Shown here: piece by piece, positions 2 to 17,898 of the stretch
How positions within the stretch are numbered: the first letter of the stretch is position 1
Layout of the letters: each line of letters begins with the position of its first letter
IMG/VR virus record: IMGVR_UViG_3300032053_000073
Location: 1 to 61,172 of that record
Direction: 5' to 3' (one strand)
Source: a virus
Taxonomy: Duplodnaviria; Caudoviricetes
Length of the DNA: 61,172 bases
The notes under the pieces: model-generated
The model's database searches: none
Seen by the model: only the letters and a program-made list of their open reading frames with translations
What the model was told of the DNA's origin: nothing
Program-made: the position numbers and the translations under genes

Positions 2-520
2 ATGTCTGGAGTTGCAGGAGGTGATTTATCTGGACTTTTTCCTAATCCCTCCGTTTCTAAAGTAAATAATGTGTCTGTTTCAGGAACCCCTATTGCGGGA
101 CAGGTAATTACAGCGTTAAGCGGGACAGCCTCAAGTTGGCAGACACCTGGCACAGGTTCTTCTACGGCAAATAAAGGCACTTATCAATGTGATGTAAGCG
201 TTAATCTTCATGATGTTGTTTATCTTAAAGCATCTGATGGTTATGTCTATTCCGCAGACGCAGATGATATATCAAAACAGCCTGTTATTGGTATAGTATC
301 ATTAAAACCAACTGCAACAACTGCTGAAGTGACTTATTCCGGTGAAGTGTCTGGATTTTCCGGATTATCACTATCAAGCACATATTATTTATCGATTACT
401 CCGGGGCAAATATCAACATCAACCCCGATAACAACCGGTTCAATTATTCAACATATAGGGTTTGCTAAATCAAGCACAGTTTTAGTTGTAATGATTGATC
501 GTGATTTCGTCATGTTATAA
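2..520 (+). CDS. virion fibre/decoration protein (probably 5'-truncated by the window edge)
   Basis: AGGDLSGxxPNPxV module shared with downstream fibres; C-terminal domain (GLSLSSTYYLS...PxTxGxxxxxIG) also seen at the end of 869..2917. Confidence 0.65.
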   Translation: MSGVAGGDLSGLFPNPSVSKVNNVSVSGTPIAGQVITALSGTASSWQTPGTGSSTANKGTYQCDVSVNLHDVVYLKASDGYVYSADADDISKQPVIGIVSLKPTATTAEVTYSGEVSGFSGLSLSSTYYLSITPGQISTSTPITTGSIIQHIGFAKSSTVLVVMIDRDFVML

Positions 521-590
521 GTCAATAATTAGGTAATATATTAAGTTGGTTAATTTCGCCTCATATAACCAAGGGGCAATTGGAGATAAA

Positions 591-812
591 ATGGCTAGAT
601 TCAAATATATGGGTGAGATGAATAGGAATGCTGTCGTAAGCTATGGCCCAACAAAAACCATAAATGTTCCGCTGAAGAATGGGACGCACCTGGTAATAAA
701 TGCAGCCGATCAAACAGCTGGATTTACACTGAACACAGATATTGGTGTTGAAATAACCGATTCAAGAGCGTTAACATGTCTTCGCGCAGATACTAGGTTT
801 CAAGAAATTTAA
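591..812 (+). CDS. small hypothetical protein in structural module
   Basis: GGAG RBS then ATG at 591, preferred over TTG at 546. Confidence 0.6.
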   Translation: MARFKYMGEMNRNAVVSYGPTKTINVPLKNGTHLVINAADQTAGFTLNTDIGVEITDSRALTCLRADTRFQEI

Positions 813-868
813 GTTTAAAGCAGTATAAAGTTTTAGTTTAACAATTTAATTGACAAAAGGATATAATA

Positions 869-2917
869 ATGACTTCTTATCGTTCACTTACAATACAATC
901 TGGTGTTGTCAAACAAGTTCAAAATGGTGATACACTCACAGTTGGAGCTGGTGTTGACACGGCTTCAGGCGATTTAACCTTAACCCCGACAGGAACTAAC
1001 GTAACTGTTGCTTCTGGTAAAGTTCTTTTATCTGGAGGTGGAACCGGAGCCCTTAATTTCGGTACTGCGTCTGGTGTATTTACAACATCAACAGGCACAA
1101 ACACACTTAGTGGTGACGTTTCTGTTGCGGCAGGTAAAAATATATCTGCAGCATCAGGCGCAGGTAATTTCGATTGGTCACTTTCAACTGGTACATTCAA
1201 AACAAGCACTGGGGCGGTCACAGTCGGCGGAGCAGCATCATTTACCGCAGCAGGCACGGCATTAGCGGTAACAAATAATGCAACTATAAGCGGAACCCTT
1301 ACCACCGGATTAATTGATAATAGCGCCGGCACATTAATAATTGGCGCAAATACAACTGCAACAACAATCGGTAAATCTGGAACAACCACCACAATCGCAG
1401 GTGATTTAAGTGTTTCCGGTGCACAAACCGTAGTTGGGACAACAACTTTTGCAAACCCAGTTACATTCGACGGTTATGTTATCGTTGGTGATGGTGTTGG
1501 CGGACCAGATTATTTCTCTCTAGATACATCAACTGGTTATTTAGGTTCATCGGCTCGTCCAGATATGCGATGGGCACCAGAAATGGCTCACCAATTCTAC
1601 GTAGCTGGCTCAACCACTACAAACGCTGCTGGCGGAGCGCTTACAGTAGCTGGTGGTCTTGGCAATGGCACAGCGGCAGGTGGCGTTCTTGCTGTTGCAG
1701 GCGGCCAAGGCGGGGCAACTGGGGCTGGCGGAAATCTAACCCTAACAGCTGGTGCAGGTGGTGCAACAAGCGGCAATGGCGGCAATTTAGTTCTAGCGGC
1801 AGGCGGCGTTACTTCAGGCACAACCGGTACAATGTCAGTCGGCGCAACAAATACCTCGGCAATCGGTATCGGCGCTAGCGGAATTACAACCACCGTAACC
1901 GGCAACCTAACACAAGTAACAGGTGCAGTGAGCTTAAGTGGTAACGCAGCTTCATCACTAACCACATCAGCCGGCGCACTTACATTAACTAGCGCAGCGG
2001 CGGCAACATGGTCAACAGCGGCAGGAGTACTTTCAGTAAATGGTTTTGCGGGAATTAACTTACAAAAGGGCGGATCAACTCTACTCGATGTTGGTGTTAC
2101 TTCAGCCACGGCATTAACAGTATCGGCTGGTACAAACGTTACTGCAGCGTCAGGGTCCACGATATTTAATTTTGGTTCTGCCACTGGTGCATTTACAACC
2201 TCAACAGGTACAAACACACTTAGCGGCGATGTTACTGTTGCAGCTGGTAAAAACCTATCTGCAGCAGCTGGGGCGGGCAATCTAGATTGGTCAGCTTCAA
2301 CTGGTACATTTAGAACCTCATCAGGTGACGGCTACCTAAACGGGAATACAGTGGTTGCAACCGGTAAGACACTGTCAACAACCGGCACAGGCATGATTGA
2401 TCTCCCTTCTCTATTCAAGATCAATACATCTGCTGTCAGCGCAAATGTTACAGCTACAAACCTAAATACCTTAACAGCTGGGGCGGCTTCTAACGCTGAC
2501 GCACTGCACACTCACTCAGGGGTAGTAGCAAGTAACCTTTTAATCTCAGGCTTAACCGCAACTGGTTTTGCTGAGGGCGACATTGGTTATGCAAGCGCCA
2601 ACAACGTGCTTACAAAAGCCATTGCAACATCACTAGCGGCAGCAAGCTTCCTTGGCGTTGCTCCTTCTGGCAATCCAACAACCTCAACATACGTCAGCGG
2701 TTCGGCAAATGTTAGGTTTGAAGGGAGCTTAACACTTGCAGCAGGGGATCGTGTTTATATCTCGGCCTCAACAGCTGGATGGGCAACAAACGTAGCTCCA
2801 TCAACTGCAGGTCAAGTAGTTGCATGTATTGGTATAGTTCTTGATACAACTGGTTATACAACTGCCGGAACAAAGGCCCACGTAGTTCTCTTCCCACAAG
2901 CACCAGTAGTTCTATAA
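869..2917 (+). CDS. Gly/Thr/Ala-rich fibre-like virion protein
   Basis: internal duplication (FTTSTGTNTLSGDVxVAAGKNxSAAxGAGNxDWS x2), GGxLxLxAGxG repeats, C-terminal domain shared with 2..520. Confidence 0.75.
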   Translation: MTSYRSLTIQSGVVKQVQNGDTLTVGAGVDTASGDLTLTPTGTNVTVASGKVLLSGGGTGALNFGTASGVFTTSTGTNTLSGDVSVAAGKNISAASGAGNFDWSLSTGTFKTSTGAVTVGGAASFTAAGTALAVTNNATISGTLTTGLIDNSAGTLIIGANTTATTIGKSGTTTTIAGDLSVSGAQTVVGTTTFANPVTFDGYVIVGDGVGGPDYFSLDTSTGYLGSSARPDMRWAPEMAHQFYVAGSTTTNAAGGALTVAGGLGNGTAAGGVLAVAGGQGGATGAGGNLTLTAGAGGATSGNGGNLVLAAGGVTSGTTGTMSVGATNTSAIGIGASGITTTVTGNLTQVTGAVSLSGNAASSLTTSAGALTLTSAAAATWSTAAGVLSVNGFAGINLQKGGSTLLDVGVTSATALTVSAGTNVTAASGSTIFNFGSATGAFTTSTGTNTLSGDVTVAAGKNLSAAAGAGNLDWSASTGTFRTSSGDGYLNGNTVVATGKTLSTTGTGMIDLPSLFKINTSAVSANVTATNLNTLTAGAASNADALHTHSGVVASNLLISGLTATGFAEGDIGYASANNVLTKAIATSLAAASFLGVAPSGNPTTSTYVSGSANVRFEGSLTLAAGDRVYISASTAGWATNVAPSTAGQVVACIGIVLDTTGYTTAGTKAHVVLFPQAPVVL

Positions 2918-2952
2918 TAATTAGTAACAATCAGTAAAAAGAAGTGATATAT

Positions 2953-2987
2953 AAAGAGGCGAGACAGAAATGTTTCGTCTCTTTTTT
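2953..2987 (+). terminator. intrinsic terminator
   Basis: AAAGAGGCGAGACA-GAAA-TGTTTCGTCTCTTT stem-loop followed by a T run. Confidence 0.8.
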
Positions 2988-3011
2988 ATTTAATACAGGA
3001 GCAATACCAAA

Positions 3012-3341
3012 ATGGCAAAGAAAACCAAGAATCACGTTTCAGATGCAGCCTTAACAAAGCCTGACGTAATTGCATTAAATCAAGACCAGGTAGAAAAACT
3101 TCGTGAGCTTGAGCAGGCAGTTCTTAAATATAAGCTTCAATTGGCAGATTTAGAAATGAGTATTAGTGATATTGCATTAAAGAAGAATTTGTTAATGGGT
3201 ACGGTTACATCAGAAACATCAAAAATGATGGAGTATATTAAGGAAGTTGCCAGGACATATGATATCGATCCTGATGGCGACTCCTCTTCTGAGCAATGGC
3301 ATTTAAACACTTCAAATATGGTGTTTTCGCGCATTAAGTAG
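3012..3341 (+). CDS. coiled-coil hypothetical protein (possible fibre chaperone)
   Basis: AGGAG RBS; heptad-rich helix; lies between fibre genes. Confidence 0.6.
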   Translation: MAKKTKNHVSDAALTKPDVIALNQDQVEKLRELEQAVLKYKLQLADLEMSISDIALKKNLLMGTVTSETSKMMEYIKEVARTYDIDPDGDSSSEQWHLNTSNMVFSRIK

Positions 3342-3464
3342 GCCCGTCAACATATTTTGTATCTAATTTAATTATATTGTTAATACCGTTAAATTAACAT
3401 CAATATAGATGTGTATTTTTCTTTGTGGCCGGCTGACATCGTAATAAATAGAAATTCTTAATAT

Positions 3465-6173
3465 ATGGCAACCTACAATAATATAGTTGTGTTCAAATCA
3501 TCAACCGGTACGATGGCAGCATCACAGACGGGAGATACTCAACAAATTGGGCAAAATCTATATTTAACAGGTGTGACCATATCTCTAAAGCTTGACGGCT
3601 ACATAGTTATGAATATGATGTCTGCCCCTCCCGTTTCTACGGCAGGAACTGGCCGTATATATTTTGATCAAAGCACTCTAAAATTCAAAGTATCAGAAAG
3701 TGGCGGGGCATATGCAAATTTAATATCTGCTAATGCGTTTGGTCCGGCCGGAGGCGATTTATCCGGAACATACCCTGGCCCAACAGTCATAAAAGTAAAT
3801 GGTACGTCTGTTCCAGCATCCCCAGCCGCTAATACAATATTGGTTGCTACATCTGGAACAACAACTACATGGGCTCAGGTTGTTGATGGATATATTTCGG
3901 CATCTGCGGCTATTTCTGGAAGCAAAATAAACCCTCTATTTGGCACGCAGACGTTAACGGCCGGAACATCTAACTTAGGCACGTCAACGTCTGCAAGTTC
4001 GATTGCAGGGTCATTAACGCTCACTACGAAGACGTTTGCAGGTAGCGGTACAATTGATGCTACAACAAAAGATTTGATTATTTATGCGGACACTTCTGCA
4101 GGGGCTATTTCATTAACTTTGCCGGCTCCAACAAGCGGAAGATTTTTGATAATTAAAGATAAAAAGCAAACGTTTAACACAAATAATTTAACTTTAATTA
4201 GAAATGGTTCAGAAAAGATTGATGGTTATGCTGGGTCCGTAGTTTACGACAAAGTAAATCATAATTTAATGATTACTAGTGATGGGACAGATTGGTATAC
4301 AAATGATTCAAATAATTTGCCAAGTGGAACGGCAGGTGGAGATTTAGCTGGAACGTATGCATTTCCAACTGTTAATACAATAACTGGGACTGGCGGGGTA
4401 ATTCCGGTTTCTGCAAATACTATAAGGTGGGCAGTAAATTCGTCGCCCTCTATACTTCAAGTTAATCAAACTGCGGCATCAACGAATGGGCAACCATTAA
4501 CAATTCAGGCTCAAAATGCAACGGGGGCAACTTCAACAGGCGGAAATTTAATTATTACAGCTGACGTTGGGACTGTATTAAACAACGAAGTTGATGTTCA
4601 AACTGGTTCAACTCTTGCATTTCGACAAGGCCCCAATATTAGTTTTTTCTCCCAAGTTTTATCAAGCGGAGGCAGATCAGGATCAACTACAACCGCTTAT
4701 TTATGTTCCGGTATAGAAAATACTATAGGTATGTCTGAAACTGCCGATTCTTTATTTGGATATTATTATAGTCCTGGTGGATCGGCCGGGTCTTATTTTG
4801 GATGGTGGTTATTTCAAGGTTTCGGATCATCTTTACATTCAATATATGGGATATCTGCTGGTAGAGCCTCAACTTCCACTGGCCTAGCAAAGCTGGGCCC
4901 AGGTTTGTTTTGGATAGCAAGAGGATATCATTTCGGAGGTAATTTTGTTGGATTAAGTATAAAGAACCACCATTATCCAAGCGCAACAGCAGCAAATTCG
5001 GATTATCACATTAGAGGTTTATATAAAATTACGGGAGATAGGGTGACGCTCACTGACAACGGGCTTTCCGGCGCCAATAGACATTTTGAGAAAACGGTGG
5101 TTGCAGATGGATATGACGGTGTATTATGGGCATCCTCTACCCAATACGTAACTGGAGGGATATATGGTAATGCACAAGGAGTGCAAACAACCCTTGCTAC
5201 AGGAATTATTCCAACCACAAATAATTCAGGAAGAAAGTTTTTTCAAGCACAAACTACGGCAAATTCTGGTACAGTTCAGCCAAATTGGGATGGATATCAA
5301 ACATTGGGAGCCACATTAGTTGACGGGGGGGTGACGTGGGAAAATACTGGATCTGCATGTACTTATGCCCATATGAACAAAATACAAGGGAATATCAAAA
5401 ATGGTACAACTTCCGGAACAATTGCGTGGGCCCTATCTGATGAGTTTATAGTTGCTACAAATATTACTGCCAGTAATGCCATTTCATTTTTTGCATGCAA
5501 TGGCCCGGATTATCAAAATTATCATACTATAAAAGATGGTTATGGTATTTTTTCACACGGCGTAGGACTGGCAATTAATAGCGCAGCCACACCAAATGTA
5601 CCCATGGATGGAGATGGATATACTTATAATTTTAGGCACGATTATGGTTCAATATCCATTCAGCATACAGGTAATAGTAAATGGCTTATTGTTAATGATG
5701 CCAAAATATATGGAATATCAAGTAGTTCTAATGATTTTGCATCAACTGGCAGCAGGTTAGATTTAGCTTCACAAGAAATAGTATTAGGGTCTAGCACTAC
5801 ATATCCTGTTAGAACATTTTCAACATCAGTTCAAACATCTGGTGCCACATTTACCACTATTGCTAGCTATACAATTCCAACAAATTCAATAGCGGATTGG
5901 CAAATAACAATAACCGGATGGAATGTAAATGGCGGGACTCCAAACGGTGATTATTTCAGATGCAATTTATCATTTCAATCGTATAGGCTATCGGGTACTC
6001 CAACATTAAACCCTGCTTCTCCATCGGCAATAAACACTATTACAAATGGGGGAGGATCCTCATATACTGTTCAGGTAATATTAACAACCAATTTAATGTC
6101 AATACAAGTTAAAGGAGTTGCCGCCACGTCTGTAAATTGGGCTTGTATTGGACAATATCAAAAGGCTTCCTGA
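3465..6173 (+). CDS. tail fibre-like protein, paralogue 1 of 3
   Basis: QIGQNLY N-terminus, GGDL module, TLPAPxxGR..IKDKKQ..SDGTDW fibre module, C-terminal NWxCIG domain. Confidence 0.8.
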   Translation: MATYNNIVVFKSSTGTMAASQTGDTQQIGQNLYLTGVTISLKLDGYIVMNMMSAPPVSTAGTGRIYFDQSTLKFKVSESGGAYANLISANAFGPAGGDLSGTYPGPTVIKVNGTSVPASPAANTILVATSGTTTTWAQVVDGYISASAAISGSKINPLFGTQTLTAGTSNLGTSTSASSIAGSLTLTTKTFAGSGTIDATTKDLIIYADTSAGAISLTLPAPTSGRFLIIKDKKQTFNTNNLTLIRNGSEKIDGYAGSVVYDKVNHNLMITSDGTDWYTNDSNNLPSGTAGGDLAGTYAFPTVNTITGTGGVIPVSANTIRWAVNSSPSILQVNQTAASTNGQPLTIQAQNATGATSTGGNLIITADVGTVLNNEVDVQTGSTLAFRQGPNISFFSQVLSSGGRSGSTTTAYLCSGIENTIGMSETADSLFGYYYSPGGSAGSYFGWWLFQGFGSSLHSIYGISAGRASTSTGLAKLGPGLFWIARGYHFGGNFVGLSIKNHHYPSATAANSDYHIRGLYKITGDRVTLTDNGLSGANRHFEKTVVADGYDGVLWASSTQYVTGGIYGNAQGVQTTLATGIIPTTNNSGRKFFQAQTTANSGTVQPNWDGYQTLGATLVDGGVTWENTGSACTYAHMNKIQGNIKNGTTSGTIAWALSDEFIVATNITASNAISFFACNGPDYQNYHTIKDGYGIFSHGVGLAINSAATPNVPMDGDGYTYNFRHDYGSISIQHTGNSKWLIVNDAKIYGISSSSNDFASTGSRLDLASQEIVLGSSTTYPVRTFSTSVQTSGATFTTIASYTIPTNSIADWQITITGWNVNGGTPNGDYFRCNLSFQSYRLSGTPTLNPASPSAINTITNGGGSSYTVQVILTTNLMSIQVKGVAATSVNWACIGQYQKAS

Positions 6174-6231
6174 TAACATATAATCTATTGATATATATTG
6201 TTTTGCAGGTTTATTACTTTTGAACCTCATC

Positions 6232-6256
6232 GCATAAAATAACATTTAATATAAAT
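6232..6256 (+). promoter_or_regulatory. 25-bp element duplicated upstream of fibre paralogues 2 and 3 (putative late promoter)
   Basis: GCATAAAATAACATTTAATATAAAT is identical at 6232-6256 and 9010-9034. Confidence 0.5.
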
Positions 6257-6307
6257 GCGTTAAATAAAGCGGCTTAACGCTATGAAAAATTAAGATAACG
6301 AGTTCAC

Positions 6308-8974
6308 ATGGCAACCACCTGGATAAATAAAATAATTGTGTTTAATGAGGCTGCCGGGACTCATACAGTTGCGCATGCCGATGACACTCAGCAAATAGGC
6401 CAAAATTTATATTTAACCGGAACTAGCACAACGGCTACATTAGATGGTTATTTTATAATAAATGGAATAACTGTCCCTGCTTTAGCGCCAGCATCATCTG
6501 GACGTATTTATTTTGATAGCACGGGTAATGTATTTAAAGCATCAGAAAATGGCGGCGTATATTTTAATTTAATTGGAGCTAGTGGTCCGGCCGGAGGAGA
6601 TCTTTCTGGTACATACCCTAATCCAACCGTTGCTAAAATAAATGGAGTCTCTGTTCCGGCAACTCCATCTGCAAATCAAATATTATTCGCCACTTCTGGT
6701 ACGGTTGCAACATGGGGTCAAATAACAGATGGCAACGTATCCGTAACCGCTGCAATTTCTGGAAGCAAAATATCGCCTAATTTTGGAACGCAAACATTAA
6801 CTGCTGGTGGATCTGCATTTGGAACTACTACAACAGTTAGTTCAATTGTGGGGTCATTAAAATTTACAACGAAAACATTTTCAGGTCCTTCTGATGGTTA
6901 TATAGATACTGGTACAAAAGATTTAATTATTTATGCTGATACATCTGGCTCGGCTTTTCGATTAATATTGCCGATTCCAACAAATGGCCGAACAATAATA
7001 GTAAAAGATAAAAAACAGTCATTTGCCGCTAATAACTTAACATTAACAAGAAATAGTGCCGAAAAGATTGATGGATATGCCGGGAACTTAGTTTTAAGTA
7101 TTAATAATAAAAATTTAGTTATTACCAGCGACGGAACTGATTGGTATACAAATAATTCCGGTTATAAGTTTACTGATGTTATGGGTGGAACAGACTTAAC
7201 TGGCTCATTTGCAACTCCAACAATTATAAATCTATCTGGTAATGCCAGCGGAATTGTAACTCATCGCACAAATAATCTTCAGTTTAATATTGGGGTTGTT
7301 GCACCTACAATAACACAGGGGGATAATACAGCTGCATCTGCAACTGCTCAAAATTTAATAATTAAGAGCCAAAGGACGGTAAATGTAGGTACTACTGGCG
7401 GAAATTTTTCATTAAAATCCGGCACTGGGACTTCCGGCGCAGGATCAGTATTATTTCAAATTAACGGAATTACTAAATTTCAAAACTCTACCGCTTTTTG
7501 TTCCTCGTCTTCGGCACATACCGGTGGATTTAACATATATTCTTTTTTACAATCCGACGCTAACGGTTTATGGGGTATGCAAAATGATGATGATGGAGGT
7601 GGCTCCAATTATTTTTCTCATAGATATTCTCCATCCCCTGCAACATCAACTGACAGATTTGGTTATTACGGATATTTTACATTCCAATATACACCAAATA
7701 CAACTGATAAAATAGCTTATGCAGTTGCAGCAGGCAGAGCTTTTGAAGGGTCTTGTGCCTTTTGGCTTCCTAGAGGATATTTATTTGGCGTAGGCACAGG
7801 AAAACACTATGTATTTCCCGGCCGCAATGTAGCCCAATATTCTAAAATAAAAAAAGGATATAGAACAATAGGTGATCGTGTAACAATATCAGATCTTGCT
7901 ACGGCAAATGGATATTATGAGAAAATAGTTACAGCTGATGGCTATGACGGGTCGGAATGGCAAGCAAGCGCATCCGAATATTTGGAAGCATCTACTGGTA
8001 ATTTTGCATTTGTAATTTTACCAATAATAAATAATTCTAGCAATCACGCTTTTCAAGTATTATCAAACCCAACAAGCGGGCTTAGTGGGGCTGTACGTCC
8101 AAACTGGGACGGATATCAAACATTAGGAAATACGCTTGTTGATGGTTATGTTACTTGGCAAAATGTTGGAACTGCATGTACATACACTAAAGCAAATAAA
8201 ATACAGGGCAATATAACGTCAGTAACTACCACATATACCGTTCTCAGTTCTGATGAGATTGTAAATATAACAAATATTACGGCCCCATTTACTATTTCGT
8301 TACCATCATCTCCAATATTAGGCCAAACACATACAATAAAAGATGGCTATGGAGGATGTTTCACAAATAATATTACTATAGACGGTTATCTTAGTGGTGC
8401 CGGTAAAACAATTGATGGTGTTAATACAATTTTAATGAATCAAGATTGGAGTTCCATTACTGTTTATTATAACGGAACACAATGGAATGTTATTAAAGAC
8501 GCAAAAACTCATGGTATTACGGCTTCCACTAATGATTTTTCTGCCACTGGAACTCGTTTAGATATTGTACCAAAAGAATTAGTTCTTGGTGCAAATACAT
8601 TAGTCCCGCTTCGAAATTTTGTAAGTTCGGCACAGACAACTAGCGCATCTTTCGTGACAATTGCAAGCTATACTATTCCAACAAATTCATTGGCCGATTG
8701 GTCATTTACGGTTTTGGGATGGAACGTAACCGGTGGAACTCCTGATGGTTATTATTACAGAGCAGATTTCGTTTTTAAATCTTCACGATTAACTGGAGCG
8801 CCAACATTAACACCATCATCACCAACAGCAACAAACGTTGTATCTAATGGCGGAGGATCGGCGTATAGTGCCCAAGTAATATTATCAACAAATTTAATGT
8901 CAGTACAAGTAAGTGGCGCCGCTGCAAAAACTATAAATTGGTCGTGTATTGGCAAATATCAAAAAGTTTCGTAA
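6308..8974 (+). CDS. tail fibre-like protein, paralogue 2 of 3
   Basis: collinear with 3465..6173 and 9070..12648. Confidence 0.8.
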   Translation: MATTWINKIIVFNEAAGTHTVAHADDTQQIGQNLYLTGTSTTATLDGYFIINGITVPALAPASSGRIYFDSTGNVFKASENGGVYFNLIGASGPAGGDLSGTYPNPTVAKINGVSVPATPSANQILFATSGTVATWGQITDGNVSVTAAISGSKISPNFGTQTLTAGGSAFGTTTTVSSIVGSLKFTTKTFSGPSDGYIDTGTKDLIIYADTSGSAFRLILPIPTNGRTIIVKDKKQSFAANNLTLTRNSAEKIDGYAGNLVLSINNKNLVITSDGTDWYTNNSGYKFTDVMGGTDLTGSFATPTIINLSGNASGIVTHRTNNLQFNIGVVAPTITQGDNTAASATAQNLIIKSQRTVNVGTTGGNFSLKSGTGTSGAGSVLFQINGITKFQNSTAFCSSSSAHTGGFNIYSFLQSDANGLWGMQNDDDGGGSNYFSHRYSPSPATSTDRFGYYGYFTFQYTPNTTDKIAYAVAAGRAFEGSCAFWLPRGYLFGVGTGKHYVFPGRNVAQYSKIKKGYRTIGDRVTISDLATANGYYEKIVTADGYDGSEWQASASEYLEASTGNFAFVILPIINNSSNHAFQVLSNPTSGLSGAVRPNWDGYQTLGNTLVDGYVTWQNVGTACTYTKANKIQGNITSVTTTYTVLSSDEIVNITNITAPFTISLPSSPILGQTHTIKDGYGGCFTNNITIDGYLSGAGKTIDGVNTILMNQDWSSITVYYNGTQWNVIKDAKTHGITASTNDFSATGTRLDIVPKELVLGANTLVPLRNFVSSAQTTSASFVTIASYTIPTNSLADWSFTVLGWNVTGGTPDGYYYRADFVFKSSRLTGAPTLTPSSPTATNVVSNGGGSAYSAQVILSTNLMSVQVSGAAAKTINWSCIGKYQKVS

Positions 8975-9009
8975 ATTATCCGATATATCCTGTTTAGGAG
9001 CACAGGCTT

Positions 9010-9034: not shown

Positions 9035-9069
9035 CAATAAAAGCTTTTGAATTGATATAACGAGACTAC

Positions 9070-12000
9070 ATGGCAAATACTTGGGTAAATAATATAGTCG
9101 TTCTTGGATCATCCGGAGCATTTACGGTTCCTCGCAACAACGATACTATCCAAATAGGACAAAACTTATATGTGGTAGGATCCGATAAAACAATAAAATT
9201 AGACGGGTTTCTTACCATTAATGCTAGATCGGCCCCTCCAGTATCATTATCTAATACTGGAACGATATATTTTGATACTGGAACAAATAGACTTTTAGCA
9301 TCTGAAAGCGGGGCTACATTCGCAAACATAATTGGTGCGTCTGGAGCGGCATCAGGAGATCTTTCTGGTACATATTCTACCCCAACGGTAAGTAAAATTA
9401 ATTCTACCTCTGTTGCGGCTTCTCCCTCTGCAAATCAAGCTTTGGCAGCCACATCATCAACAACATCGGCATGGTCTCAAATAACCGATGGATATGTATT
9501 ATCTTCCACTGTAATTGCTGGCAGTAAAATAAATCCTGCTTTTAGCCCCCAATCATTAACCGCAGGAACATTTGCCTTAGGGCTTACATCATCCGCTAAT
9601 TCTATAGATGGTTATGTAAATCTAAATACAAAAACATTTACTACTACTGGCACAATTGATACAACAACAAAAGATTTAATAGTTTATGCCGATACTACTA
9701 CAGTTGGATTTACGCTTACATTGCCGGCGCCTGTTAATGGTAGAATTATTATTATAAAAGATAAAAAACAATTATTTTCAACTAAAAATTTAACAATTGC
9801 AAGAGCCGGTGCTGAAAAAATTGATGGCGTTGCGGCGTCATTGGTATTAAGTAAAAATAATAAAACTTTAATTATTACAAGTGACGGAACTGATTGGTAT
9901 ACTAACGATTATACATCATCGCTTGCCGGTGCTGGAGGCGGCGATTTAGGCGGCACTTATCCAAATCCTACTGTTGTTGGATTAACTGGCACGGGTAATA
10001 TAGTTACTACTAGTGCCGCAACAATACGTTTTAATAATAATGTTGTGGCACCTACGATTAATCAGATTGATCGTAATGTCGGCGATGCAGTTTCAAATGG
10101 ACCTACTTTTATTATTCAAGCACAAAATGCTACCGGCACCACCTCAGTTGGCGGCAATTTAATATTAAAATCTGGTACCGGAACATCGACTCATGGCAAT
10201 ATACAGCTGAAGCATGTTGGGTTTAACGGCACTACAATTACTCAAAACACCGTGTTTGCTTCTGTAACAAGCTCAACCTCAGCTCCAGGAGTGTTGTTAT
10301 ATGGCTATTTGAAATATAATGTTAATAGCGCTTGGGCACTAGCTACATCGCACGATTCATTTGCCAATTCATTGACATATTTTCCAGTTGGCGATACAAA
10401 TGCCCCTGGTTGGTGGACATCTATATATGCAGATTCATTTTCTTATTGCGCTTACGCTGTTTCCGGTGCACAAGCTGTAGAAGGAGCGGGGATTATGTGG
10501 TATCCGAGAGGATATGGAATGACAATAGTAAATAATGGCACACAATATGCCCCATATACTTTTCCGAATCTAATTTCTGCAAAATCAAGCCAAATTAGAA
10601 GCGGATATCGTTTTACAGCAGATAGGGTAACATTAGCAAATACCGCGGCTCCAAATGCATATTATGAAAAAGTAATAACATCTGATGGTTATGATGGAAA
10701 TGCATGGGTCGCAACTACAACATATATTGGCGCAAATCCGGCAGCTGGTTTTGCAGATACAATTATTCCAACATCAAATAATGCCGGTTCTAGAGCTTTC
10801 GAATGTCTGGTTGGAGGAACAACGGGCAGCTCTCAACCAAATTGGGACGGATACCAAACTACCGGAAATACTCTTGTTGATGGAACCGTGACGTGGAAAA
10901 ATGTAGGTGCTTCTGCTACCTATAACATGATGAATAAAATACAGGGTAATACAACGCCAATAACAACGACATATACAGTATTATCGACTGATGAATTAGT
11001 TCTTATTACAAATATAACTGCACCATTTACTATATCATTACCAACAAATCCAACCGCTAAAGATTATTATACAATTAAAGACGGATATGGGTGCTCAACA
11101 AATAATATTACTATAGATGGTTATCAGGGTGGTACCGGTAAATTAATTGATGGGGCCAATACAATTTTATTTAATCAAGATTTTAGCGCGGTCACAGTTT
11201 ATTATAATGGCACACAATGGAATGTCACGAGTCAAGTAAAAACAGAGGGACTTACTTCTGCAGACAATGATTTCGCTTCAGGAACTCGCCTAGATGCTGT
11301 TCCATCTGAAATAGTTTTAGCATCAACATCATCACTCACATCTGTTCCATTTAGACAATTTACTACTTATGCTCAAACAACAAGCGCAACATATGTGACA
11401 ATTGCTAGCTATACAATTCCAACAAACTCTATGGCTGATTGGAATTTAAGTCTCGCCGGTTGGAACGTAAATGGCGGCACTCCTAATGGTGATGGATATA
11501 GGGCCGATATAAAATTTCAATCTTCACGATTAACTGGGGCACCTACATTATATCCTGCATCTCCATTGGGTACAAATGTAAGTTCAAGTGGAGGCGGCTC
11601 AGCATATAGCACGCGAATTACATTATCAACAAATTTAATGTTAGTTGAAGTTAGTGGCGCGGCAGCAACGACAGTAAATTGGTCGTGTATTGGTAAATGC
11701 ATAATCATTGGCAATACCGTGGCGGTTGCGACAGTATCTTCAGTGTCATCAGCGGGAACGTCTACACAGTGGGATAATGCTCAAACACTAACAATAACTG
11801 GTACTAATTTTGTTTCAGGGTCTATTGTATCAATTGGTGGATCCGCAATGTCAACAACATTTGTATCATCAACCAGCCTTACATGTACAGCTACAGCGAC
11901 AGTGTATCAAACAAGCGGCACTAAATCAATCACCGTGGACGCATCATCGGCATATACGGGATATTCGGTTACTGCATGGACTATAACTGATCTTCCAGGG

Positions 12001-12648
12001 ATTACGGGGCGTTGGCGAGCTGATCTTGGCATCACTTTAACAAGCGGAAAAGTCTCTGACTGGGCTAATCAAGGCTCTGGTGGTGGATCTGTAACAGACG
12101 GCGGATTTTCTACAAGGCGTCCTACCCCAACAACACGGAATGGTAAGGACGTATTGCAGTTTCACCTTAATTTCTTAATTGGCGGAGTTGTGTGGTCAAG
12201 CATTATCTCGGCAGCTACGTATTACGCATTTGTCACATTAGAATCTACCGATACCACTACCACTACAGGCGCCTCATTTTCAAATCCAGCAGTAATGGGA
12301 TCTTCGTATGTTTCATGGGAAATTACAAAAGATGTGGTACGAACTGTCAATTATGATGGTACTACAGATACATCTCCTAACGTTACATTTACGCCAAACG
12401 CTCGACATCTAGTTGCATATCAGCATACTGGTGGCAATGTGGCATGTGGATTAGATGGGTCTACGCCTACTACAACGGCCAGCGGAGATACGGCGAACAG
12501 AACAGAAGCTGCGCGTATAGGGTGTAATTACAATAATGGATTCTTTTTTGATGGATATATTAGAGAGATTGTAATATCCACAAGCTCTATTACTGCCAAC
12601 GAAATAACGCGTGTAACTAATTACATGACTGCAGATTTCGTAACGTAA
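9070..12648 (+). CDS. tail fibre-like protein, paralogue 3, with an IPT/Ig-like + LamG/ConA-like C-terminal extension
   Basis: collinear with the paralogues, then LTITGTNFVSGSIVSIGG (IPT/TIG-like) and WRADLG...VSDW...FFDGYIREI (LamG-like). Confidence 0.8.
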   Translation: MANTWVNNIVVLGSSGAFTVPRNNDTIQIGQNLYVVGSDKTIKLDGFLTINARSAPPVSLSNTGTIYFDTGTNRLLASESGATFANIIGASGAASGDLSGTYSTPTVSKINSTSVAASPSANQALAATSSTTSAWSQITDGYVLSSTVIAGSKINPAFSPQSLTAGTFALGLTSSANSIDGYVNLNTKTFTTTGTIDTTTKDLIVYADTTTVGFTLTLPAPVNGRIIIIKDKKQLFSTKNLTIARAGAEKIDGVAASLVLSKNNKTLIITSDGTDWYTNDYTSSLAGAGGGDLGGTYPNPTVVGLTGTGNIVTTSAATIRFNNNVVAPTINQIDRNVGDAVSNGPTFIIQAQNATGTTSVGGNLILKSGTGTSTHGNIQLKHVGFNGTTITQNTVFASVTSSTSAPGVLLYGYLKYNVNSAWALATSHDSFANSLTYFPVGDTNAPGWWTSIYADSFSYCAYAVSGAQAVEGAGIMWYPRGYGMTIVNNGTQYAPYTFPNLISAKSSQIRSGYRFTADRVTLANTAAPNAYYEKVITSDGYDGNAWVATTTYIGANPAAGFADTIIPTSNNAGSRAFECLVGGTTGSSQPNWDGYQTTGNTLVDGTVTWKNVGASATYNMMNKIQGNTTPITTTYTVLSTDELVLITNITAPFTISLPTNPTAKDYYTIKDGYGCSTNNITIDGYQGGTGKLIDGANTILFNQDFSAVTVYYNGTQWNVTSQVKTEGLTSADNDFASGTRLDAVPSEIVLASTSSLTSVPFRQFTTYAQTTSATYVTIASYTIPTNSMADWNLSLAGWNVNGGTPNGDGYRADIKFQSSRLTGAPTLYPASPLGTNVSSSGGGSAYSTRITLSTNLMLVEVSGAAATTVNWSCIGKCIIIGNTVAVATVSSVSSAGTSTQWDNAQTLTITGTNFVSGSIVSIGGSAMSTTFVSSTSLTCTATATVYQTSGTKSITVDASSAYTGYSVTAWTITDLPGITGRWRADLGITLTSGKVSDWANQGSGGGSVTDGGFSTRRPTPTTRNGKDVLQFHLNFLIGGVVWSSIISAATYYAFVTLESTDTTTTTGASFSNPAVMGSSYVSWEITKDVVRTVNYDGTTDTSPNVTFTPNARHLVAYQHTGGNVACGLDGSTPTTTASGDTANRTEAARIGCNYNNGFFFDGYIREIVISTSSITANEITRVTNYMTADFVT

Positions 12649-12733
12649 AGCACAATTAATTCAATTGACAGCACTACTAACATTTTAGCATATATAATGT
12701 AATTTCATAATATTTTTTTAAGGCCCAGCAAAT

Positions 12734-14719
12734 ATGGCAAAATATCCTGCCCAGCTTGATACTACAATATCCCTTCCAACAGTTAATGATAATTCTACTG
12801 CGATAAAGGGAATTACAGTAAATAGACTCAGGGATGCAATTTTAGCTATTGAAACAGAGCTTGGGATTAAGCCCTCTGGAACATATGGAAATGTTAGATC
12901 AAGAATAGATAATTTAGAGATTTTTGCTAATACAACTGGCAATGTAGTTTTCTCTCATGATTTATCTGGAACATCATCAAATCAAACGGTAGTTGGGCTA
13001 CGTGGGAATCCAATTTCAGTTACTCCTCCAGCAATTGGACAATCAATAATTTGGAACGGAACTAACTGGGCGCCAAGCACTAATTTTATTGATCAAAATA
13101 TTATAACTACAGGATCTATTCTTGGAGGTTTTACCAGTTTTTCTTCTGTCGATACCACACTATTTACATTAACAGGAAAAATGGTAGTAGATAGTATTCC
13201 TACAACATCATTTACTTCTGATTTAAATCAAGGTATAATTTATTTTGATTCAGTTGCCCATAAGTTCAGGGTATCTGAAAACGGCGGGGCTTATGTCGAT
13301 TTAGTTACAACGGCGCCAGGTGGAGGCCCTTCTGGAACGGCGGGTGGCGATTTAGGCGGCAGCTACCCCAACCCAGATGTCATTAAACTGCGTGGTAAAT
13401 CAATATCGGCCGCTGCCCCATCCGCAGGCCAAACGCTAATCTGGGACGGTTATGCGTGGACTCCAAATACAAATTTCATGTTCCAAAATATTGCCACTTC
13501 TGGAAATATAATATCTAATTCTTCATTTACGACAATGTTAGATGCTTCATTAATATTATTATCTGGAAAATTGGTAATGGACGGTATTACGGCACCAATT
13601 ATTTCTGACCCAAATGAAGGTATAATTTATTTTGATCAAGCCACAAATCATTTCTTGGCATCTGAAAATGGCGGAGCATACGGGGCAATTGGCGCTGGCG
13701 GTAATTACGGATCAACAAACATAACAACAACCGGATCATCGTCTGCAAACTCTTTAATATCTAATGGTACCATAGTTGTTAATGAGATATCTACGCCAGC
13801 TGTTTCCGCTATAAATCAAGGTATTATTTATTTTGATAATATTGCAAATAAATTTAAAGTGTCTGAAAATAGCGGGGCATATATAGATTTAGTTGCGGCG
13901 GTTGGTGCTGCCGGTGGAGATTTAACCGGATCATATCCAAATCCAACTGTAGTTAAATTACGAGGTCGCGATATAGCTACTGATACCCCTACAGTTGATC
14001 AGTTTTTAGGATATACTGGTTCAGCATGGAAGCCTTTAAATATAAATTCTGATCAAATTGCGCAGACATTAGTGTTTTCAGTGATACCAGATGAGAGTTT
14101 AGTTGAAGTTGGGGTTATATTAAACCGGCCAATATTTACCGGCATATATAATCAAAACATTTCTGCATCTCAGTTATCTGATAGCGTTGGAGGTACTCCT
14201 GTAGATGTAAAAGCAGGATATACAGTATTAAGTTCGCCTGTGTTTCCGGCATCAGCTCCATTTACTAATAGATTTTATATGGACGAATCCTACACATATA
14301 GTACTTATGGATCTAGTGTAACATTTTCATTAACATCTACAGCCGTTTCAACAATAGCCATTCCAAGTCCAGCTACAAAGGTAACAGCTACAACTGTAAC
14401 ATGGGCACAAAAAATGTTTTATGGTATTGGGGCAGCCGGCGGTAATTCAGAGGCATTTATTGAGGCGCTTTCAAACAGCTTTCTTACCACATCACGAACA
14501 ACTCATTTCGAGGTTAATCCAGGCGTCTCTCAATATATTTATGTTGCTTTCAGGTCTGCTTATGGCCCGGCCACTTTCTTTGTTGATGGCTTTGAGGGTG
14601 GATTTGCATTAGTATCAAGCACTATTTCAGTGACTAATCAATATGGATTTACTGAAAACTACACTCTTTATGTAAGTGATAACGATAATTTAGGTTTATC
14701 GCACGTTTCAGTCTTTTAA
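12734..14719 (+). CDS. virion fibre/baseplate-associated protein
   Basis: N-terminal YPAQLD...LRDAILAIETELG anchor-like segment; three repeats of QGIIYFD..FxxSENGGAY; GGDL modules. Confidence 0.7.
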   Translation: MAKYPAQLDTTISLPTVNDNSTAIKGITVNRLRDAILAIETELGIKPSGTYGNVRSRIDNLEIFANTTGNVVFSHDLSGTSSNQTVVGLRGNPISVTPPAIGQSIIWNGTNWAPSTNFIDQNIITTGSILGGFTSFSSVDTTLFTLTGKMVVDSIPTTSFTSDLNQGIIYFDSVAHKFRVSENGGAYVDLVTTAPGGGPSGTAGGDLGGSYPNPDVIKLRGKSISAAAPSAGQTLIWDGYAWTPNTNFMFQNIATSGNIISNSSFTTMLDASLILLSGKLVMDGITAPIISDPNEGIIYFDQATNHFLASENGGAYGAIGAGGNYGSTNITTTGSSSANSLISNGTIVVNEISTPAVSAINQGIIYFDNIANKFKVSENSGAYIDLVAAVGAAGGDLTGSYPNPTVVKLRGRDIATDTPTVDQFLGYTGSAWKPLNINSDQIAQTLVFSVIPDESLVEVGVILNRPIFTGIYNQNISASQLSDSVGGTPVDVKAGYTVLSSPVFPASAPFTNRFYMDESYTYSTYGSSVTFSLTSTAVSTIAIPSPATKVTATTVTWAQKMFYGIGAAGGNSEAFIEALSNSFLTTSRTTHFEVNPGVSQYIYVAFRSAYGPATFFVDGFEGGFALVSSTISVTNQYGFTENYTLYVSDNDNLGLSHVSVF

Positions 14720-14762
14720 TGTTATCTAAACTAAAAAACAACTAACAAAATGACATTTAATC

Positions 14763-15296
14763 ATGCCGACTAATGTAATATCTATAATTAAGCCTAAGAA
14801 TAATGGGACTTTTCCGACCCATGAAGATACAGATGGATACGGCGGATTTCAAGTTAGAAATGACGCAACAGACAGAAACTCTATACCGTCCGGTCGTAGA
14901 AAACAAGGGATGTTGGTATATCTTAATTCTGACGGTTATTTCTATCAATTAGCAGCAGATTTAAATACATGGAATCTGGCTAATTTTGGAGTTTCTGGCG
15001 GTGGGCCTACAATACCAAATACAAGATCAATTACCGGGGCAACGACTATAGTAAATGCTTCTGATGATATGATTTTTATTACAACAATATCAGCTCCATT
15101 TACAATAACACTTCCTGCGACCCCAACTGCCGGACATGTATTTACAATAAAAGACGCATCTGGAACGGCTTCTTTAAATGCTGTTACACTAGCGGGTAAT
15201 GGGCATACGATAGACGGATCTTCAACATTCCCAATAAACCAAAATTATGAATCTATTAATATTGTTTATAACGGAACTAGTTGGAGCATTATCTAA
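14763..15296 (+). CDS. small virion/fibre-associated protein
   Basis: RNSIPxxRRKQGMLVY head; C-terminal TLPATP..IKD..YNGTSW module shared with the fibres. Confidence 0.65.
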   Translation: MPTNVISIIKPKNNGTFPTHEDTDGYGGFQVRNDATDRNSIPSGRRKQGMLVYLNSDGYFYQLAADLNTWNLANFGVSGGGPTIPNTRSITGATTIVNASDDMIFITTISAPFTITLPATPTAGHVFTIKDASGTASLNAVTLAGNGHTIDGSSTFPINQNYESINIVYNGTSWSII

Positions 15297-15672
15297 ACCT
15301 ATTATTTTTACAAGCATAGCACGTCATATTACCATCTTTATCCGGGGATGCTTGGCTCAAAAACTCATTGCACCTGCTGCAGAATGCCCCGTCCATAACA
15401 TATTCAATGGAGGCGATATTCTCGTTGGTTATATATGCAATCTCTTCATCTAAGAATTTTTTATTAATTCCAAGTCTAGTTATTTTTGAACAATCAACAG
15501 TTAATGTATTATTAAGCATTATATAATGTGGAATATAGACGTGATATCCAACTTTATCAAGAGCTACGATTTCAAATGTTTTTTTGAAATCAAAATCGCT
15601 TGCGTATGTGCTTATTATTGAACTATTTTTAATTTTGCATACAACTCGATCACCGGGCTTTAATATGCTCAT
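15289..15672 (-). CDS. hypothetical protein with C-terminal Zn ribbon
   Basis: CSRC...CYAC. Confidence 0.6.
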   Translation of the reverse strand: MSILKPGDRVVCKIKNSSIISTYASDFDFKKTFEIVALDKVGYHVYIPHYIMLNNTLTVDCSKITRLGINKKFLDEEIAYITNENIASIEYVMDGAFCSRCNEFLSQASPDKDGNMTCYACKNNRFR

Positions 15673-15689
15673 AAATTAATGTGAATATA

Positions 15690-16166
15690 TTAAAAGCTTT
15701 GCATGTAAATAGATACGCTGACTCCATCATTAATCATTACATCGTCTAATTTTGCATTAATCTCTGGCATTTGATCAACTAAGAATTGTGATACGTGAAT
15801 TGATGCCTTTTCTTGTTTAGCTAATTGATGCACGCGTTTTAGACAACTATCAAGAGCATCTGAATTTAAGGTGCCACTCTCATCTTGACATAGCATTGTA
15901 ATTACCCAGGTATCACTCTGAACAGCTGTAATGCTAATTGATCCCAGCTTAAAATTTTCACGAGAGGCGAACCACCCTTTTGATTCTGCTTTAATTTTCG
16001 GCCATTTACGATCTAATACTTTCATCAGATCTCCACTAGGCTTTCCGCTCATACTTAGATAATTTAATATAAACCTTAGTCCTGCCACTTGTGGAAGCAG
16101 GATTGTTCCGTTTATTTCCTTTTTCTTGCCCTTTTGAGAAAATCGATCATTTTGGTTAGTTGTCAT
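15690..16166 (-). CDS. macro-domain-like protein (degenerate)
   Basis: KWP..LGSISIT..VITMLCQ..DALDSCLKRV..ASIH pattern of Poa1p/TARG1-like macrodomains. Confidence 0.45.
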   Translation of the reverse strand: MTTNQNDRFSQKGKKKEINGTILLPQVAGLRFILNYLSMSGKPSGDLMKVLDRKWPKIKAESKGWFASRENFKLGSISITAVQSDTWVITMLCQDESGTLNSDALDSCLKRVHQLAKQEKASIHVSQFLVDQMPEINAKLDDVMINDGVSVSIYMQSF

Positions 16167-16225
16167 ATTATATTTACCTTTATATTAATTTTATTAGCAC
16201 GGAGTGGCATTTCAATTTATATATA

Positions 16226-16924
16226 TCAAGTGATTGTGGGCCGCCAACGCTTAACATAAGATTTGCACATAATATCAAAAGCAGAATCGCCAAAATCATT
16301 TAATGCAAGATTAACTATTAAACATACAATCCTTATATTATTTTTAGTATATCCGGCATTACAATTTATACGATCTATTGATGGCGCAAAAGCCCTTTTC
16401 GTATTACCAAATTTAGTTAAATTAAAATATATGCCAGTTAAAGCGCATTTGCCATTTTGTTCATTGTATAAGTCTATTAAAAATGGTAAGTCTATATCAC
16501 AATCAATTTTTAATTTTTTAGAACGACTGTTTGCATTTTTTCTGAGAACCCCAAGAAACTTTACATAACATTTTTCAATTGGTATTGCATCAAACATAGC
16601 TTCCGTTTTCTTATATCTTTTTGTATTATTTTCGCTATGCCTCTTAAGATGTGAAATATATTCTGACTGATTTGGATTATTTTTTAATTTTATGATTTTA
16701 TTACGACTTGCATTGCTTTTACATATCTTGCAGCGCGGTGAAAATTTGTCAAACTCAACTTCCAATTTAAAAATATGACAATTTGTACATGTCCTATCTC
16801 CAGAATACCTTTGTTTATAGCTGTATTTTTCACAAGATCGGCAAACGTTTCTATTTTCTCTAAAATTTTTTGTTATTTTAACTGAAGTACATACGGTGCA
16901 TTGCTTACTATTAGTTATAATCAT
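16226..16924 (-). CDS. HNH-like homing endonuclease
   Basis: CxxC pairs; GKCALTG..SIDRINxxxGYTKNNIRIVCxxVN. Confidence 0.75.
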   Translation of the reverse strand: MIITNSKQCTVCTSVKITKNFRENRNVCRSCEKYSYKQRYSGDRTCTNCHIFKLEVEFDKFSPRCKICKSNASRNKIIKLKNNPNQSEYISHLKRHSENNTKRYKKTEAMFDAIPIEKCYVKFLGVLRKNANSRSKKLKIDCDIDLPFLIDLYNEQNGKCALTGIYFNLTKFGNTKRAFAPSIDRINCNAGYTKNNIRIVCLIVNLALNDFGDSAFDIMCKSYVKRWRPTIT

Positions 16925-17892
16925 AGCTCATCTAAATATTCGTGTAAAAACTTAACTTCTTTTTTATAATGTATTTTTATTTTATTTGGGACTATATTCT
17001 GTTTCTTCGTTCCATATACACCAATACCGGTTTTACATCGCTTACTTATATAGGTACCAAGTAAACATTCAATATCATTAAAGTCCGGCATTATCAAAGA
17101 ATATTTACGATTATAAAATGCATCTGCCAAAAAACTATCATGACCCTGACATAAGAATAAATTACTATTTGTTAGATTACAAATATATTCTAATTCATTA
17201 TCCAGATTTTTCATCACTAATTTATCATATTTTTCTTCATCAAAATTAGAAAATAACACAGGGTCATTGAATTTATTTAGAAAAATATGAGGTTTACGAT
17301 CTTCGGTCAACGTTGCGCCCACTATTTCGTGGTTGCATGGTTTTGATTTATCTCCAATTAAATAATACGGCCTAACCCATTCATATCCAGAGTTTAATTT
17401 TGGTGTGTTTTCTGCGTCCATAAAATGAGAGTATACAAATTTTCTATCTGCCGTATTAAGCGCATCATTCAAAGTAATATATACAGTACAATCATAATTG
17501 AATAATATGGAAAAATTATATCTTAAACACAAATAATGCTTATCTACTCTGTCCATTCCATGAAAAAGCATCTTTGGATTTACTTGCCAAATTTTAATGT
17601 TTAATTCTTTTGCAATATATGATGTATACGGCTCTAAATCACTAATAATAAGATCTGGCTTAAATTGCTTTACCTGATTATAATATACAGCAAGGTTATC
17701 ACTATCAAACCTATATTTTAAACTGGCTACATCTTTAATGCTATCTAAAGTCCAATCAACAATATCCAGAATGCCAGATTTTTTATAAGCAGCAACTTTT
17801 ACATTATATTTCCCATCTATACAACGTAAAAATCTCATCATTCTTATTTTGGCGCTATAAGAATCTGATGCTGCGTACAATATCTTTAACAT
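16921..17892 (-). CDS. GT-B glycosyltransferase (MJ1255-like)
   Basis: LKILYA start; FKPDLIISDLEPYTSYIA; CQGHDSFLADAFYNRKYSLIMP. Confidence 0.65.
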   Translation of the reverse strand: MLKILYAASDSYSAKIRMMRFLRCIDGKYNVKVAAYKKSGILDIVDWTLDSIKDVASLKYRFDSDNLAVYYNQVKQFKPDLIISDLEPYTSYIAKELNIKIWQVNPKMLFHGMDRVDKHYLCLRYNFSILFNYDCTVYITLNDALNTADRKFVYSHFMDAENTPKLNSGYEWVRPYYLIGDKSKPCNHEIVGATLTEDRKPHIFLNKFNDPVLFSNFDEEKYDKLVMKNLDNELEYICNLTNSNLFLCQGHDSFLADAFYNRKYSLIMPDFNDIECLLGTYISKRCKTGIGVYGTKKQNIVPNKIKIHYKKEVKFLHEYLDEL

Positions 17893-17898
17893 TATTTA

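Follow-up and report, generated by a model that had tools for sequence, protein, structure and literature searches.

A recurrent Asp-Gly-Tyr tripeptide in the fibre proteins of a jumbo phage fragment and its relatives as a candidate turn-and-clamp motif

The tail-fibre genes of a metagenomic phage fragment, IMG/VR record IMGVR_UViG_3300032053_000073, code for proteins in which the tripeptide Asp-Gly-Tyr (DGY) is far more frequent than amino-acid composition predicts. We have analyzed the entire record of 61,172 bases, called the window here, together with homologous proteins and related phage genomes. The best-supported reading, which we hold about evenly probable, is that DGY is a selected structural turn-and-clamp idiom of the fibre. 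An earlier interpretation of this DNA, made from its letters and open reading frames (ORFs) and called the sequence-only reading below, had proposed that DGY is a recognition motif and had pointed to a glycosyltransferase (GT) gene downstream of the fibre module. A link between this glycosyltransferase and DGY is not supported.

The seven fibre-type ORFs lie on the plus strand at 2-520, 869-2917, 3465-6173, 6308-8974, 9070-12648, 12734-14719 and 14763-15296. They contain 1, 2, 7, 9, 8, 1 and 2 DGY, thus 30 in 4,674 amino acids, where 0.90 would be expected from composition. The hand count of the sequence-only reading proved exact, and its rough estimate of about one expected occurrence was right as well. 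Outside the fibre set there are 51 ORFs of at least 80 amino acids (13,987 amino acids in all), which hold 2 DGY, in 33737-35686 and 42010-42870, against 2.14 expected; two had also been noticed by eye in the non-structural set. The difference between fibre and other ORFs is highly significant (Fisher odds ratio 45, p = 2e-16), and 20,000 within-protein shuffles gave a mean of 0.88 DGY with a maximum of 6. DGY ranks first among all tripeptides of the seven ORFs. Of the 52 DG dipeptides in this set 30 continue into Y, and 30 of the 47 GY have a D in front; outside DGY the dipeptides occur as expected (DG 22 versus 23.4, GY 17 versus 20.9). The signal is therefore a property of the full tripeptide and not of DG or GY. 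Related tripeptides are rare in the fibre set (DGF 2, NGY 1, DGW and YGD 0). A motif at the DNA level was rejected, since DGY is written with eight different 9-mers, almost always in frame within fibre genes; the use of eight codon combinations therefore places the signal at the protein level.

The ORFs at 3465-6173, 6308-8974 and 9070-12648, named A, B and C, are paralogues with 48-50% identity. When their aligned positions are collapsed, 13 column groups and 6 sites elsewhere remain, and these 19 DGY still compare with only 0.57 expected (Poisson p ~1e-22). Six of the 13 groups carry DGY in a single paralogue. The earlier statement that paralogy explains only part of the enrichment therefore holds. 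All paralogue contrasts quoted in its support are present in the alignment, namely SIAGSL/SIVGSL/SIDGYV, SGT/TGT/DGY, DGN/DGY, DGV/DGY, DGT/DGG/DGY and NGDYF/DGYYY, and the contrast WNGTNW/WDGYAW is found within 12734-14719.

The enrichment recurs in other phages. Among 117 homologues of paralogue B, DGY was counted 278 times against 17.5 expected (15.9-fold), whereas DGF (6 versus 14.3, 0.4-fold), DGW (0 versus 8.6) and NGY (19 versus 28.1, 0.7-fold) were not enriched. A second sample, 143 cluster representatives at 50% identity of the 12734-14719 family, gave 246 DGY against 23.4 expected, with DGF and NGY both at 0.7-fold. This family is very large, with 5,047 cluster representatives at E <= 0.001. 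The distribution is patchy: 55 of the 117 and 85 of the 143 proteins have no DGY, and the DGY-rich proteins form a minority (23 of 117 with at least 5, 13 of 143 with more than 5). Since so many homologues carry none, a general richness of fibres in beta-turns does not account for the enrichment.

About half of the homologues' DGY fall within a hairpin repeat, DGYVLTW-xxx-DGYW. In the first 120 proteins, 107 and 43 DGY occupy the two fixed sites of the more general unit DGY-h-L-x-W-xxx-DGY-W. At the first site the common form is x-G-Q (84 cases, with N, T, S or others as x), and 51 of 55 forms with Tyr read D-G-Y. The second sample agrees with this: Asp occurs with Tyr in 34 units and with Gln in 13, and another residue than Asp occurs with Tyr in 8 and with Gln in 210. 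Judged from these alignments, Asp and Tyr change together and Tyr stands in for the conserved Gln. Both types of hairpin occur side by side in 31 of the 74 proteins that have DGY-type hairpins. Other recurring contexts are W-x-Q-I-x-DGY-[IV] and IYF-DGY-TNKF. The 274 unique non-hairpin sites share hydrophobic flanks only (55% at position -1 and 46% at +1, background 29%), without an extended consensus. Non-hairpin DGY are 12.4-fold above expectation in the 74 proteins with DGY-type hairpins and 2.8-fold in 110 proteins with Q-type hairpins only (Mann-Whitney p = 4e-11, a test that ignores relatedness). At the positions where the window has DGY, homologues mostly carry other tripeptides; position 46 of B, for instance, reads DGK in 9, NGA in 5 and TGK in 4 of 49 homologues, and position 255 reads DGV, SGV or EGV. 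Repeated acquisition of DGY as a short motif is thus a fair reading of these alignments. In this respect the sequence-only reading, which had inferred repeated independent gain of the motif, finds support, but a link to the glycosyltransferase does not.

Structural models suggest how the motif might be used. P0331, a DGY-rich homologue, gave an AlphaFold2 (AF2) model with a mean predicted local distance difference test (pLDDT) score of 63.7 and values of 78-94 in the hairpins. At all five confidently modelled sites of P0331 the Tyr is predicted as the first residue of a strand (E72-77, E82-87, E350-355, E360-365 and E429-434). In the model of paralogue B, D679 and D692 end strands within the confident domain at residues 631-730. 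Three copies of residues 40-150 of P0331 were predicted as a trimer with a score of 0.83, and the best of three controls reached 0.00. In the calibration 20 of 30 proteins whose solved structures are pairs of one chain attained this mark, as did 1 of 23 known as single chains; the trimer run, with our own alignment and three copies, differed from the calibration. Contacts agreed to at least 91% between runs and the pLDDT of the partners was at least 86. It is unlikely that the trimer score reflects a structure already learned by the predictor, because no solved structure matches the hairpin part. In the trimer model D70, G71 and Y72 are interface residues, as are G144 and Y145; the partners of Y72 and G71 are T75/W76 in the adjacent chain, with an expected error of 0.6-0.7 Å. 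D80, G81, Y82, Y84 and D143 belong to the 19 of 111 residues that are not named as inter-chain contacts, where a residue not named counts as uncertain and nothing more. Burial was judged from contact lists. The model would thus place one DGY in the inter-chain interface and a second at the outer hairpin tip.

The reading to which we give about even weight would assign DGY to beta-structured, trimeric fibre shafts and to gp10-like adaptor domains, as an idiom that a minority of the members of a very large fibre family from metagenomic phages also use. Asp-Gly would form a tight turn and Tyr would open the adjoining beta-strand, or Asp would close the preceding one. In the repeated hairpin DGY alternates with x-Gly-Gln, the more frequent form, and its Asp and Tyr vary jointly. 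In the trimer the first Tyr may pack against Thr/Trp from an adjacent chain, while the outer tip of the hairpin may be formed by the second DGY. DGY would in this way staple turns and chains, and Tyr on the fibre surface might be a by-product or a second use. Shuffling of modules, together with recurrent substitution at turns, may have spread the idiom, and it would be independent of the neighbouring glycosyltransferase. The enrichment and its specificity, its recurrence in other phages, the coupling of Asp with Tyr and, in one complete genome, DGY richness that requires no GT are observed in the sequences; turn geometry, inter-chain contact and exposure are all predicted from models. Several observations weigh against a purely structural role. 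The requirement for Asp and Tyr is strict, with neither DGF nor NGY enriched in either homologue sample, and DGY co-varies at non-homologous sites, as the contrast between the two hairpin types indicates when relatedness is ignored. At some positions, such as B46, DGY replaces Lys-containing or polar tripeptides, which suggests exposed sites, and D80, G81, Y82 and D143 are among the residues that the trimer model does not name as contacts. By our own classification only about 5 of the 30 window sites are hairpin-like and 8 of 30 lie in gp10-like domains, so that most are outside the canonical hairpin. The AF2 models are poor overall, with mean pLDDT values of 52.2 for B and 63.7 for P0331.

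Three features speak for keeping recognition as an option: the strict need for Asp and Tyr, co-variation among unrelated sites, and copies predicted to be exposed. Exposed DGY turns might bind a polymer of the host surface repeatedly and with low affinity, or might dock other fibre or decoration proteins, and selection would then act in the modules that determine contact with the host; we regard this as rather unlikely. The position of the second-site DGY (80-82) and of Y84 outside the named contacts would fit such a function, as would the Lys or polar residues of homologues at several DGY positions and the preference for Tyr over Phe, which suggests that the hydroxyl matters. On a tree of the N-terminal anchor the DGY-rich proteins (27 of 97 rows) are scattered: the tree needs 20 changes where shuffling gave 23.6 on average, and well-supported branches enforce no fewer than 4; the trait therefore seems to follow distal modules and not the phage backbone, although the tree is a quick and poorly resolved one with 56 of 94 inner branches open. 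DGY hairpin modules are also common to jumbo phages and to a 36.5-kb podovirus. However, DGY has no known ligand or partner, it is present in proximal parts and in the gp10-like adaptor domains too, and the Tyr of the first site is inside the predicted interface.

DGY could also serve as a sequon at which Tyr or Asp of virion proteins is covalently modified, the enzyme coming from the host or being an unrecognized phage protein. We consider this distinctly unlikely; in the version of the sequence-only reading the candidate enzyme was the window's own glycosyltransferase. In more general terms, DGY would be a self-contained three-residue signal, read by such an enzyme or by a binding partner, with a need for both the carboxylate of Asp and the hydroxyl of Tyr, and this too seems improbable to us. 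If it were true, selection at the level of lineages or modules would explain why DGY is jointly present at many non-homologous turns in some phages (12.4-fold versus 2.8-fold). The tripeptide-specific and largely context-free signal, seen at the 274 non-hairpin sites with their hydrophobic flanks, speaks for a sequon, as do the coupling of Asp and Tyr and the co-variation of non-homologous sites. There are also precedents. The general O-glycosylation motif of Bacteroidota is described as D-(S/T)-(L/V/T/A/I) (PMC11632369), methylation of a phage tail protein is reported to depend on a host enzyme (PMC13445384), and glycosylation of mycobacteriophage virions is cited in PMC12619734. DGY resembles the Bacteroidota motif in having three residues with Asp first, but the acceptor there is the Ser or Thr at position 2, where DGY has Gly. 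The Bacteroidota motif itself was tried and rejected for the window fibres, as D[ST][AILVMT] is not enriched (16 versus 22 expected). Moreover, O-glycosylation in Bacteroidota acts outside the cytoplasm, whereas virions assemble inside. The mixture of Q-type and DGY-type hairpins in 31 of 74 proteins also stands against a sequon. A literature search on DGY motifs in tail fibres found no description, and no acceptor motif of the DGY type is known to have been described.

Further points against the modification concern the glycosyltransferase. The GT ORF that the sequence-only reading had named does exist at 16921..17892. It lies on the minus strand, opposite to the fibre module, and encodes a GT-B-type protein of 323 amino acids without DGY. 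The protein matches PF13528, a distant MJ1255/VC2487 family, marginally, with 26.1 bits (cut-off 25) over 50 residues only, and its score with NCBIfam TIGR00661, 26.7 bits, is far below the cut-off of 195.9. Its Atlas model resembles PF13528 and GT28-type clusters, themselves predicted models, with template modelling (TM) scores of 0.74-0.79 over 291-304 residues, and it has the two-Rossmann architecture of the GT-B fold. We found 474 full-length homologues at about 40-50% identity, many of them on contigs of 350-480 kb. In 31 of 31 related loci the gene is part of a co-directional run on the strand that does not carry the fibres, composed of a flavoenzyme, a 115-amino-acid ORF, a DEDD exonuclease and the GT. 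The window fibre proteins have matches within 10 kb of the GT in at least 24 of these 31 loci, a point in favour of a link, and DGY-rich ORFs adjoin the GT in about half of them. However, the fibre matches vary in side and orientation, and the neighbourhood is therefore conserved only loosely.

Co-occurrence of DGY and the GT across phages, which the sequence-only reading had suggested as a check, does not bear out the link. In five complete genomes with the GT the counts of the DGY-coding word and of a reversed control were 80/51, 113/77, 66/55, 62/51 and 122/43, so that the gene is present over a sevenfold range of DGY excess (+11 to +79). Four of the five, G006-G009, carry it by construction, since they came from a search with the GT; the fifth, G010, was found by a DNA pattern for DGYVLTW, as were G011 and G012, and all three of these carry it when tested. 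The GT is universal in the complete genomes of jumbo relatives that were tested, and because all of them carry it, its co-occurrence with DGY is uninformative there. G001 is a complete podovirus genome of 36.5 kb with direct terminal repeats, a CheckV completeness of 100% and SU10-like head genes. Its tail and fibre ORFs contain almost all of its 35 DGY (about 1.6 expected). Among its 36 ORFs of at least 80 amino acids neither a GT homologue nor any glycosyltransferase family was detected; this is one genome, some of its ORFs lack an assigned function, and a host enzyme could still serve. A protein of 397 amino acids in G001 (L125:4673-5866, plus strand) consists in part of ten copies of IDGYVQTNPN, a third and unrelated DGY-based repeat. 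Finally, paralogy, repeats or amino-acid composition are hardly credible as the source of the enrichment: although 24 of the 30 sites fall in three paralogues, with 4 column groups common to all three, and about half of the homologues' DGY stem from one repeated unit, this would leave unexplained the 19-versus-0.57 excess after collapsing, the ordinary frequency of DG and GY without DGY, the 274 unique non-hairpin sites and the expected number in the window's non-structural ORFs.

The minus-strand block at 15289..21688 contains, besides the GT and ORFs of 127, 158, 115 and 217 amino acids, an HNH/endonuclease VII-like gene (16226-16924), a DEDD/RNase T exonuclease (17899-18546), a FAD flavoenzyme (19004-20218) and a GIY-YIG endonuclease (20218-21000). 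The 217-amino-acid ORF heads the conserved run in the 31 loci (L004-L034), and the 158- and 127-amino-acid ORFs usually follow the GT, with homing endonucleases inserted at varying places. The block might act on nucleic acids. Roles described for phage glycosyltransferases include DNA glucosylation, serotype conversion and glycosylation of mycobacteriophage capsids and tail tubes (PMC12619734, citing Freeman 2023 and Pyle 2024). The window enzyme is GT-B-type and phage-encoded like those with known targets, but unlike them it has an exonuclease and a flavoenzyme as neighbours. In the complete 428-kb relative G011 the GT homologue is in two adjacent pieces (G011:C1:104374-105144, minus strand; profile positions 2-183 and 251-325), and the gene may be broken or interrupted there.

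In the fibre module the first ORF (2..520, 172 amino acids) carries the unit GDLSGLFPNPSV and one DGY (codons from 236), and matched no Pfam or PHROG family. The ORF at 869..2917 (682 amino acids; DGY at 1469 and 2327) matches no Pfam or PHROG family that would point to a fibre nature. Paralogue A (3465..6173, 902 amino acids) has its DGY at 3594, 3885, 4221, 5106, 5289, 5535 and 5613; B (6308..8974, 888 amino acids) at 6443, 6893, 7070, 7937, 8108, 8141, 8342, 8381 and 8744; and C (9070..12648, 1192 amino acids) at 9487, 9607, 10684, 10846, 11080, 11116, 11491 and 12550. C has an additional C-terminal part of about 300 amino acids (residues ~890-1192) without a counterpart in A or B, with a DGY of its own at residue 1161. 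The 661-amino-acid fibre at 12734..14719 has a conserved N-terminal anchor and two units of GDLxGSYPNPxV and hairpin; its single DGY (13445) lies in GQTLIWDGYAWTP, while the sister unit has WNGTNW instead. The last ORF (14763..15296, 177 amino acids) contains a gp10-like domain at residues 86-176 (phrog_972, phrog_20556, phrog_31104) and two DGY (14832, 14931).

A Pfam scan of eight module ORFs, the seven of fibre type and 3012-3341, returned no family at E <= 0.01, and the gathering score of PF19264 (DUF5907), 27 bits, was not reached. Several homologues of the window fibres do match this family (P0014 with 92.8 bits, P0017, P0009 and P0060). DUF5907 proteins, found in phages and bacteria, are built from GDLxGxYPNPxV units, a P..G-Q-h-L-x-W hairpin and I-x-D-G-[AS]-h-T-x-x-K decapeptides. 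A pattern search for GDLxGx[YF]PxPxV with a hairpin ending in W/Y found such units in 2-520, 3465-6173 (two), 6308-8974, 9070-12648 (two) and 12734-14719 (two), thus in five of the seven ORFs, and no GDLxGx[YF] match in 869-2917 or 14763-15296. In alignments the hairpin with DGY corresponds to the G-Q hairpin of canonical units, but the window lineage has D-G-Y where those units have x-G-Q and D-G-[AST], and unlike the DUF5907 homologues the window ORFs reach no Pfam model. No structure or function is on record for DUF5907, and a literature search on it found no publication. In the DGY-poor homologue P0100, residues 280-392 weakly match 9eg4_H (E 0.0019), which in Legionella phage LME-1 is a trimeric decoration protein of the head, within a decapeptide repeat I-x-D-G-A-V-T-x-x-K; according to its paper the distal region of the decoration protein was not modelled. 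The repeat may therefore, as far as this match goes, be a building unit of head and tail fibres alike.

Parts of 6308-8974 and 14763-15296 match PHROG 972 (tail fiber proximal subunit), 20556 (baseplate protein) and 31104. In B two gp10-like adaptor domains, at residues 181-290 and 631-730, are indicated by phrog_972, phrog_31104 and the model compared with Foldseek, and these are also the confident domains of the B model. Foldseek matched this model to 7rfv (E 3.1e-06), 9f4a_LS (2.9e-07) and 2fl8_A (9.1e-03), each with probability 1.00. The confident domains of B and the C-terminal domain of P0331 match 7rfv, 7rfo and 7rej (E 3e-6 to 1e-4), and the same searches also hit the baseplate of Klebsiella phage KP1 (9f4a/9f4b), T4 gp10 (2fl8/5iv5) and gp9 (1qex). 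The window domains thus resemble in fold T4 gp10/gp9 and the N-terminal (XD-type) part of CBA120 TSP4, adaptors of branched fibre and tailspike systems, but whole-chain TM-scores are low (0.09-0.36) and only domains match. These adaptor domains are not known to involve a DGY motif. A sequence search of the PDB had no match for fibre B, 12734-14719 or P0017, and Foldseek found no analogue of the hairpin shaft among solved structures.

The window has no end repeats and is a fragment of a jumbo phage, because CheckV estimates its completeness at only 14%; its genes are common to relatives on contigs of 350-480 kb. The plus-strand module (2-15296) has a G+C content of 37-44% and the remainder of the window 28-35%. 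The strand skews shift at about 15-16 kb, where the direction of transcription flips. No cultured relative was detected among 50,697 phage records, by megablast of 20 kb or by tblastn of the GT and fibre B, and a search for related loci with fibre B alone gave no relative among viral contigs. Relatives were gathered instead by GT alignment and by the DNA pattern for DGYVLTW. The 89 viral matches to this pattern are in part chance by estimate, and many of these loci have no in-frame motif; a scan of genome contigs gave single matches in unrelated taxa, about what is estimated for chance over 596 Gb, and was not used. In the complete genome G010 the DGY-rich ORFs form four clusters.

The non-fibre part of the window codes for a ribonucleotide reductase, a PhoH-like protein, helicases and many homing endonucleases. 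The large subunit of ribonucleotide reductase (28374-31823, minus strand, 1,149 amino acids) has an HNH-endonuclease-like insert at residues ~485-665. In the PhoH-like protein (24920-27277, minus strand, 785 amino acids) an insert at residues ~289-646 matches PHROGs of terminase, primase and helicase loader, as intein-bearing families do. Both inserts look like inteins. Three paralogous HNH endonuclease genes contain repeated phrog_4605 units, with 8 stretches at 33737-35686 (minus), 4 at 47760-48830 (minus) and 5 at 60111-61172 (plus). Together with a second GIY-YIG gene at 38635-39972 and the endonuclease genes of the GT block, the load of homing endonucleases is heavy.

Tail fibres decide the host range of phages, and most fibre repeat shafts from metagenomes have no solved structure. 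A glycosyltransferase encoded near a fibre module should not be read as functionally linked to it. DGY, the commonest tripeptide of these fibres, occurs in 450-kb jumbo phages and in a 36-kb podovirus alike and thus marks a distinct style of fibre building. It also offers a simple experimental handle to distinguish a folding staple from a binding site and from a modification site.

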